This document shows positions 52,885 through 53,940 of a stretch of DNA of 64,000 bases, piece after piece. The notes beneath the pieces were generated by a model, which was given only the letters and a program-made list of their open reading frames with translations, ran no database searches and had not been told where the DNA came from. The DNA comes from a virus (Duplodnaviria; Caudoviricetes). Positions within the stretch are counted from its first letter, which is position 1; every line of letters starts with the position of its first letter. The position numbers and the translations under genes are program-made. The stretch covers positions 1-64,000 of the IMG/VR virus record IMGVR_UViG_2802428822_000002; one strand, 5' to 3'.

Positions 52885-53940
52885 TCCTGAGAGATCGGGA
52901 CACGGTCGGTGACGGAGCGGTTCCTACGGTCACGGGATTAAGGCGCGGAACTCCGAAACGTTAGCCGCGGGCGTGCTTCAGCCATACCAAACGATATTCG
53001 GGCTTGGCTAATTACCAAGTGTTTATCGGAGCCCCAGGCAGACAGGGTCACAAATAGCGGAAAGCCGGACTCTACGCCGGTATGCCCATGGTTCAGATCC
53101 GGACGATCCGGCACGAGTCATGGGCGAGAAGGTTTCAGATCTCGTCCATACGCAAGACAGGGACGCGGCGGGATCATTGGGAAGGGCGAAGAGGCTACGG
53201 GAAAGCTGTCTTGGAACCGTAGTTATCGACGTTCGACCGGGCGGAGAGCCTGGGGAGTGGGTGCAAGCCCCACATTTAGTCTCGCCCAACTGGGCAGTGA
53301 TTGTGTGCCGAACGTGCGGAATGTTGAAGCCTCTGGTGGAGCAGCGCACGACAGGCCCACCCCGGCACTCCTACGGGAGGCGACACCGGGGCGCCAACCG
53401 GACCGTCCACGATTGGGGGGGGTATTCCGGCAGACGCTAATAGGCCGGCGTGGTGTGGGTCAAATTTTGCCCGAGTGGGCATCCGAGGAGGGGGATCGGT
53501 CTTATCAGCCGATCGCGCCGGCAGGATTGATAACCTGGTGGCACCCCGCGAGAAGGGAAGGCGATACGGTAAGGTTCGTCCAGCTCAGGCTGAGTAGTTG
53601 CTCTCAGTATTCCCCAGTTCAAGGTGGGAGGCTTTCTGGTTGCTGTAACGCCTTGCCGCGGCGGGCATGGTTCGCCGAGTAGAGGAAACCAGCGCTCAAT
53701 CCCGAGAGCGAGAAAGAATGGGAGGCGGGGAGTGCCGAAGATAGTTCCGCCTAAAGCTACAGTTCGGTCGCATGGTCCCGGCGTTACGGGCCAACGAATT
53801 CGCCGAAAGGCAACGAGGTCTTGGCCCTGAACTGACAGGGTGAGTAATGGCAGAGCGGAGAGGTCTTCGATAAATCTTTTCTGCTGAGAAAGGGCGGCTG
53901 ACCACTGTCCCAACGACGAAGTGTCGCTCGAAAGAGCATG
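52885..53940 (+). ncRNA. large structured non-coding RNA candidate (GOLLD/ROOL-like size and context)
   Basis: About 1 kb with no credible ORF; continuous stems with G-U pairs, GNRA/UNCG tetraloops, T-loop-like hairpin, pseudoknot; tRNA-like element follows. Confidence 0.7.

Follow-up and report, generated by a model that had tools for sequence, protein, structure and literature searches.

Of the phage RNAs described to date, GOLLD (Rfam RF01998) and ROOL (RF03087) are the closest to the element analysed here, a stretch of ~1.06 kb (positions 52885-53940) which is free of genes and lies behind a repressor-type promoter of a Rhizobium-type prophage. It was read within a window of 64,000 nucleotides, the first 64 kb of a 101,397-bp IMG/VR provirus record. 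Other systems also bear comparison: the species 1 and 2 RNAs of phage T4 are structured, of unknown function, co-transcribed with the phage tRNAs and released by tRNA-processing enzymes; in MALAT1 and MEN-beta a tRNA-like mascRNA element sets the 3' end of a long RNA via RNase P; and the lambdoid HK022 put RNA and lambda pR'-6S leader are cis-acting leaders of ~70–200 nt, which either target RNA polymerase or stop at a terminator. GOLLD, in one published account, occurs in phages and prophages, often near tRNA islands, and measures several hundred to >800 nt; env-38 lies downstream of a Met-tRNA, tRNAs can sit inside a linker, and one conserved region is paired with a less conserved one, the 3' part being universally conserved and the 5' part variable (10.1101/2024.12.08.627333). 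For ROOL, the same source describes an RNA of prophages and phages, likewise often close to tRNA islands, which has neither an assigned function nor a known protein partner (10.1101/2024.12.08.627333).

The stretch resembles GOLLD, so described, in being phage-borne, in lying beside a tRNA and specifically next to a Met-tRNA, in its size range and in combining one conserved with one less conserved region. The location is also that of GOLLD and ROOL, in a provirus record with a tRNA-Met or its remnant directly 3' and a further tRNA at 54759-54848, the sole Rfam match at gathering score in the window. It differs from GOLLD in giving no covariance-model match at E ≤ 10, in having its 5' 245 nt best conserved and its 3' part conserved in blocks only (the reverse of the GOLLD pattern as given in that account), and in being hosted by Rhizobiaceae. 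With ROOL, as portrayed there, it shares the prophage setting near tRNA genes and the lack of a known protein partner, whilst it differs in the absence of a covariance-model match, in showing no demonstrated pseudoknot architecture, and in being modular with a length that varies between close relatives. The resemblance to MALAT1 lies in a long non-coding RNA followed by a truncated tRNA-like element which keeps acceptor and T arms, however the element here derives from a phage tRNA-Met and RNase P cleavage is predicted only. The T4 RNAs are small, whereas the stretch is 0.6–1.06 kb across its variants and heads an operator-controlled early operon. The put and 6S leaders likewise offer a conserved structured RNA directly downstream of a phage promoter heading a long operon, but the stretch is without a terminator and is followed by further modules and a tRNA.

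An earlier note on this DNA, made from its letters, had suggested a diverged member of GOLLD or ROOL or else a new giant RNA, and saw a likeness to GOLLD in segments such as one ending in GTATT. The family assignment fell in the Rfam searches: cmscan against all 4227 Rfam 15 families returned nothing in the stretch at gathering score, and cmscan of 52600-55000 at E ≤ 10 gave no match inside it, GOLLD, ROOL and the group I and II intron models included, which also leaves the suggested GOLLD resemblance without support. We found two full relatives, both prophages, which we refer to as G001 (an IMG/VR provirus) and G002 (in Rhizobium lusitanum JHI1118), and their loci matched tRNAs only in Rfam at E ≤ 1. 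By these searches the stretch belongs detectably to neither GOLLD nor ROOL, nor to the group I or II introns. A transfer-messenger RNA, including the permuted form, was also considered and rejected, as ARAGORN finds none and the sole trace is a 17-nt T-arm-like match outside the stretch.

Comparison of the relatives suggests that the stretch is probably a new, rare, modular phage leader RNA, of the GOLLD and ROOL kind by context and not by family membership. In the reading we favour, to which we give a probability of roughly 0.5, it would be the first, non-coding part of the rightward early transcript of the prophage. The operator-controlled promoter at 52849-52878 would drive a plus-strand RNA of ~1.06 kb, built as a chain of a 245-nt 5' domain, a module M2 (53468-53553), a 3' core (53621-53797) and a terminal GNRA hairpin, with lineage-specific filler between them and a tRNA-Met at the end. 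RNase P cleavage at the 5' end of the tRNA would most likely set the 3' end of the RNA, and even the decayed tRNA of this prophage, an acceptor/T-arm minihelix, could still serve for processing. Once free, the RNA, whole or as modules, would act in trans in the lytic cycle, as may other phage RNAs beside tRNA islands. Besides G001 and G002, we found partial relatives in three sets of Logan contigs (X3, X4 and X7, from three public runs that are DNA or of unknown kind) and in four proteins, P0035–P0038, which are spurious open-reading frames (ORFs) whose translations reveal further variants of the element. The parts of the element are:

52828-52868, plus strand: operator boxes bracketing the -35 hexamer, a left box at 52828-41 and a weaker, inverted right box at 52855-68
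52849-52878, plus strand: sigma-70-like promoter TTGACA-18-AATGAT, 10/12 matches, kept in G001 and G002
52885-53130, plus strand: 5' domain of ~245 nt, 12 predicted helices, 78–82% identity to G001 and G002
53132-53302, plus strand: window-specific insert containing the GTGGG..CCCAC hairpin, with no comparative support for structure or function
53303-53460, plus strand: segment common only to the window and the P0035/P0036 variant, containing the CCCCGG..CCGGGG helix
53468-53553, plus strand: module M2, a hairpin plus a stem enclosing two hairpins (three-way junction), with an invariant GGAGG-rich strand
53621-53797, plus strand: 3' core, with hairpins at 53659-77, 53693-710 and 53723-52 (AGGCGG/CCGCCT)
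53798-53920, plus strand: variable 3' linker, replaced by 123 different letters in X3 and differing in length and sequence in G001 and G002
53926-53937, plus strand: terminal hairpin of GNRA type, GCTC-GAAA-GAGC, immediately upstream of the tRNA element
53942-54003, plus strand: 62-nt deletion derivative of tRNA-Met(CAT), aligned with the G001 and G002 tRNAs

The stretch is non-coding, because GC content by codon position is flat (0.588/0.602/0.594, where the flanking genes dip at position 2), its ORFs match no protein family, 1-nt indels fall inside otherwise invariant conserved blocks in the alignment of the window, G001 and G002, and the match to P0035/P0036 passes from one frame of the window to another. 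In the family searches of eight ORFs, PHROG gave no match and Pfam none at the curated cut-off, two weak matches scoring 13.8 and 16.5 bits against cut-offs of 31 and 26 bits. Six-frame, stop-to-stop translations were arginine-rich nonsense, and a coding reading of the stretch was dropped on these grounds of codon GC, translation, family matches and frame switching. The earlier statement that no ORF is led by a Shine-Dalgarno sequence was borne out: no credible ORF was found, and no Shine-Dalgarno sequence precedes the ATG of the 106-codon ORF discussed below.

The order of parts is fixed between the window, G001 and G002, running from promoter through 5' domain, variable middle, 3' block and terminal hairpin to tRNA-Met, and the 852-nt X3 contig keeps the same block order. 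G001 and G002 carry the element at the same position as the window. Common to the window and both relatives are the promoter, the ~245-nt 5' domain, a block at ~53720-53790 (~86% identical to G001 and G002), the terminal hairpin and the tRNA-Met, whilst 53621-53720 is common to the window, X3, X4 and X7. In sum, ~55–60% of the stretch (5' domain, M2, 3' core and terminal hairpin) is shared with any relative, and the remaining sequence has been swapped, inserted or deleted between relatives, such that the element measures ~1060 nt in the window, ~800 nt in G001 and G002 and ~600 nt in X3. In the X3 contig, 52941-53092 is joined to 53621-53797 via 62 other letters, and 53797 to 53924 via 123 different letters, after which 53924-53953 follows. 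Its 53092 to 53621 joint omits the insert at 53132-53302, which is also missing from G001, G002 and the P0035/P0036 variant.

The 5' domain includes a variable hairpin (~52992-53030) and a long hairpin (53084-53125). Without the variable hairpin it is 82–91% identical to the relatives, compared with 78–87% for the terminase gene; against G002, its conserved parts are 91% and 82% identical and the terminase gene 78%. Parts of it also occur in Logan contigs X3 and X7 and in the spurious ORF P0036. M2 is present in the window and G002, and in the translations of P0035, P0037 and P0038, which represent three more variants. The 3' core is held at ≥80% identity by contigs X3, X4 and X7, and just upstream of its hairpins lies another hairpin with a UUCAAG, T-loop-like loop (~53615-53628). 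Between 53303 and 53460, similarity to P0035/P0036 is 32/40 identical residues in one frame and then continues in another.

All eight helices that had been listed for the stretch are present on the plus strand. One is the terminal hairpin above, the others are:

53084-53094 and 53115-53125, plus strand: GCCCATGGTTC paired with GAGTCATGGGC
53257-53273, plus strand: GTGGG..CCCAC, in the insert 53132-53302
53360-65 and 53386-91, plus strand: CCCCGG paired with CCGGGG, enclosing CTCC-TACG-GGAG at 53368-79
53494-99 and 53509-14, plus strand: GATCGG paired with CCGATC
53636-41 and 53687-92, plus strand: CTGGTT paired with AACCAG
53723-28 and 53747-52, plus strand: AGGCGG paired with CCGCCT
53782-91, plus strand: GCC-GAAA-GGC

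The near-continuous helices of the earlier note proved to be at chance level for a G+C-rich sequence by minimum free energy (z-scores of -0.34, -0.58 and -0.32 in the three segments tested below). The GTGGG..CCCAC helix could not be kept as a conserved element, since it lies in the insert that is common to no relative. As folding is at chance level, any claim of structure must rest on comparison with relatives, and here the ornate structured RNA stands in part: substitutions in parts of it preserve structure on the plus strand. In the 5' domain, 5 of 67 predicted pairs are compensatory (counted over two or three sequences), compared with a shuffled mean of 1.6, and 1 of 500 shuffles reaches this number, whilst slid controls give 0–2. 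In M2, comparison of the window with G002 shows 29/29 predicted pairs kept, with two double changes, seven one-sided wobble-compatible changes and none broken. AGGCGG/CCGCCT becomes GGTGG/CCACC in G001 and G002, a compensatory change of C-G to U-A, and the terminal hairpin GCTC-GAAA-GAGC becomes GCCC-GAAT-GGGC in both, a compensatory U-A to C-G. For the 3' core we give no pair statistics, as the first MAFFT alignment misplaced the T-loop-like hairpin of the window; by manual count, seven of the positions at which X3, X4 and X7 differ in its three hairpins are in loops and one is in a stem (G-C to G.U). Consensus folding gave lower energies on the plus than on the minus strand, both for the 5' domain (-77.1 vs. 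-67.2 kcal/mol) and for M2 (-39.5 vs. -21.5 kcal/mol). Substitutions in the conserved modules thus appear to preserve pairing and to favour the plus strand.

The claim of an operator-flanked promoter was confirmed: the sigma-70-like TTGACA-18-AATGAT is in place, boxes are present around its -35 hexamer, and the promoter is conserved in the relatives, with transcription predicted to start near 52885. The left box reads ATTCTCATACGCAT (52828-41), and the right box is a better copy in G001 than in the window. A repressor would presumably bind these boxes at 52828-52868. The 14-nt box also occurs in inverted pairs at 17740/17765, 19599/19624 and 50173/50200, near promoter-like sites, and matches at up to three mismatches number 11 in the window, a count that 2 of 100 shuffles attain (mean of the shuffles 5.5). 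The twin design, of inverted boxes around TTGACA, was read at 50173-50213. The four box-bearing promoter-like sites probably form one prophage repressor regulon. The box consensus across 17740-17778, 19599-19637, 50173-50213 and 52828-52868 is ATTC(T/G)CAT(A/G)(A/C)GCAT, and the boxes bracket the TTGACA hexamer at both sites read (50173-50213 and 52828-52868).

At the other end, the tRNA-like element said to follow directly is indeed there, at 53942-54003, and it descends from a phage tRNA-Met gene. G001 and G002 carry a full-length tRNA-Met(CAT) at this place (62.7 and 64.7 bits against Rfam tRNA), with which the remnant aligns base for base except at two deletions and some few substituted positions. 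Acceptor stem, T-loop and CCA survive in it, whilst the D arm is short of ~10 nt and another 5 nt are missing after the anticodon. ARAGORN called no tRNA genes in the window and did not recognise the remnant, and the Rfam tRNA model (RF00005) gave no match to 53942-54003 at E ≤ 10. Of the Rfam models, mascRNA-menRNA (RF01684) alone overlaps 53940-54001, at 16 bits and E 9.2 against a gathering score of 42.5, which is a likeness of shape and not homology.

Searches beyond the two sister prophages returned little. With the terminase as query, G001 was the sole match in viral_contigs (one IMG/VR provirus, 94% amino-acid identity) and G002 the sole match in genome_contigs (one genome, 85%), and an alignment search with a neighbouring 153-aa protein gave G001 only. 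The blastn search of the stretch against the phage collection found one 39-nt match, inside a coding sequence, and against the plasmid collection tRNA genes only. Four viral_contigs loci with homologues of the downstream ORF P0002 showed no similarity to the stretch by blastn or nhmmer. Of five DNA patterns searched against viral_contigs, three returned G001 only (one of them plus a chance match) and two returned none, whilst one pattern searched against metagenome_contigs gave a chance 23-nt match only. On these searches the phage group appears to be rare.

Several observations weigh against the modular leader RNA that we favour. For ~40% of the stretch (53132-53460 and 53798-53920) there is one relative at most. 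Within it, a 39-nt piece (53312-53350) matches part of a protein gene that occurs in Rhizobium phage RHph_N28_2 and genome G891, being 90–92% identical to its low-complexity, Ala/Gly-rich linker sequence (L006:3001-3039; L037 = G891). Minimum free energies did not depart from dinucleotide shuffles in 52885-53130 (z -0.34), 53131-53620 (z -0.58) or 53600-53940 (z -0.32), where 70/200, 21/100 and 34/100 shuffles, respectively, folded at least as well. Four of the five compensatory pairs in the 5' domain belong to helix 8, at the base of the poorly alignable variable hairpin whose interior differs in each phage, and the covariation counts come from two or three sequences with structures predicted from those same sequences, which favours them. 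One mismatch in the T stem of the tRNA remnant means that recognition by RNase P is not assured. Among the public runs listed as containing the stretch none is an RNA run. Finally, a search of 173 Rhizobium species genomes gave the element in one, G002, the search centre itself; it was not found beyond G002 in 400 further family-level genomes, bar two short chance-level matches, nor in 400 further order-level genomes, bar one 39-nt match. Presence in so few genomes does not imply a widely useful function.

A single giant, ornate RNA, an alphaproteobacterial counterpart of GOLLD and ROOL, is an unlikely alternative. Here the whole 0.8–1.06 kb would fold as a unit that might form a multimer, with the variable parts as expansion segments. 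The conserved blocks keep a fixed order in four variants, no tRNA-like punctuation or terminator interrupts the stretch, and the context is that described for GOLLD and ROOL, in phages or prophages and at tRNA islands, with GOLLD env-38 downstream of a Met-tRNA (10.1101/2024.12.08.627333). However, no covariance model matched, no long-range pairing with comparative support was found, size ranges from ~600 nt (X3) to 1060 nt, and the folding z-scores are at chance. Modules also exist alone, on a Pararhizobium plasmid and in Schitoviridae phages, which fits separable modules in a chain better than a single giant fold. What survives of the giant RNA of the earlier note is a non-coding stretch with an operator promoter and a tRNA-derived end; one uniformly conserved fold does not. 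A bolder formulation, which would take the stretch as the first member of a new family of Rhizobiaceae phage RNAs of large size (0.6–1.06 kb), with 5' domain, M2 and 3' core in one particle, the tRNA-Met or minihelix as its RNase P release signal, and a role as the alphaproteobacterial functional analogue of GOLLD and ROOL, is doubtful, if a little less so.

It is similarly unlikely that the stretch is a cis-acting leader, in which the 5' domain would modify RNA polymerase or gate the long rightward operon, by processive antitermination as in HK022 put or in the manner of a lambda-type late leader, with the rest as spacer. The best-conserved part does start at the predicted transcription start, the promoter shares operators with three other promoters, and plus-strand genes run from 54021 to the terminase at 73.7 kb. 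Against this, put RNAs are ~70 nt, whereas three more modules are conserved here far from the promoter, and the terminal tRNA suggests processing of the RNA. Nor does the stretch, or the sequence just behind it, contain an intrinsic terminator that has a real T tract. The stretch's sole plus-strand terminator-like site, at 53257-53273, was rejected as a terminator, having a weak T tail and lying in the window-only insert.

Rather improbable, in our estimate, is a largely non-functional patchwork, a recombination-prone spacer from the promoter to a phage tRNA gene with decayed gene fragments and hitch-hiking sequence, whose conservation would reflect recent common descent only. Whole-stretch identity to the relatives is 54–57% with many indels, large segments are confined to the window or nearly so, the tRNA is decaying in this phage, and folding energy is at chance. 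The 39-nt protein-linker match adds to this as it extends weakly (14/31 residues, E 0.008). The linker protein gene lies just downstream of repressor and cro-like genes in RHph_N28_2, with a similar frame in G891, and its N-terminus presumably resembles DUF2312/GapR. Positions 53312-53350 may thus be a captured relic or fragment, or a recombination junction, and part of the filler may be captured coding sequence. Yet the 5' domain is conserved at least as well as the terminase gene, every stem substitution in M2 keeps pairing, the differences of X3, X4 and X7 avoid stems, folding is strand-asymmetric, and blocks persist in relatives that are <80% identical elsewhere, all of which speaks against a patchwork.

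An unrecognised protein gene, such as the 106-codon ORF at 53120-53440, is highly implausible: the codon-position GC of 53100-53400 is weakly gene-like and two database proteins match 40 residues at 80% (32/40 identical), but both are spurious ORFs on related DNA which lack 57 codons of the window ORF, the protein similarity carries on in another frame of the window, there is no Shine-Dalgarno 5' of the ATG and no Pfam or PHROG match, and the ORF is not present in G001 and G002. The ends of these two proteins look to us like artefact peptides of contig ends.

Sequences from the middle of the sister elements recur elsewhere. A middle module of G001 (L009:1826-2110), which is not in the window, recurs on the Pararhizobium qamdonense plasmid p3 (NZ_CP119568, L032:2908-3270) as an unannotated copy of ~260 nt with 70% identity, directly 3' of a tRNA-Met-like gene. 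Between the G001 module and this copy, 12 of 58 predicted pairs are compensatory, and the plasmid element looks like an independent structured RNA outside Rfam. A second motif, of ~55 nt, CTGGATGACTT..TTCAAGACGG..TAAATGTCCA, is found in G001 (L009:2150-2205), in G002 (L018:1260-1315, minus strand) and in RiverRider (L031:2495-2555). It is 84–94% identical in five Schitoviridae phages of Xanthomonas and Stenotrophomonas (RiverRider, PB119, Paxi, Piffle and Pokken); its DNA is unannotated in four of the five phage records, PB119 annotating a hypothetical protein. In RiverRider, the only region read, the motif stands just after the tRNA array. The surrounding ~790 nt of the Schitoviridae regions are not conserved and gave no Rfam 15 match. 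At the equivalent place the window has only the hairpin with the UUCAAG loop.

The genes around the stretch are:

50868-51857 and 51815-52258: two adjacent HNH endonuclease genes, left of the stretch
52479-52814, minus strand, divergent from the stretch: BrnA-type antitoxin-like gene (PHROG 4692, E 1.6e-16)
54021-54323, plus strand: 100-codon phage ORF, the right neighbour of the stretch (PHROG 22450)

The two HNH genes sit between two divergent operator-controlled promoters. The second (51815-52258) has 78% amino-acid identity in both sister prophages, whilst tblastn of the searched G001 and G002 regions gave no homologue of the first (50868-51857). On the other side, a gene-poor RNA island goes on past the stretch at 54327-55507, with tRNA-like units (L033:5600-8550 in G001). 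The first downstream gene that is conserved, an orf95 homologue, lies ~2.65 kb from the promoter in the window, compared with ~3.9 kb in G001 and G002. The T-arm-like motif GGTTCAxATCCG occurs five times in 52800-55600.

A caution follows for the reading of such loci. Hairpin-rich, ORF-free phage DNA can look ornate by eye without folding better than its shuffled counterparts, and selection may act on just a part of an ornate-looking stretch of this kind. The prophage belongs to a genus with established genetics, and the layout of the locus, with an operator promoter, a conserved 5' domain, a variable middle and a tRNA that is decayed here and intact in its sisters, invites experiment. It makes testable whether RNase P releases the RNA, whether the modules are separable, and whether losing the RNA alters induction, burst size and late transcription. 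If the RNA is transcribed and stable, it would be an alphaproteobacterial addition to the small set of large phage RNAs of unknown function that lie beside tRNA genes.

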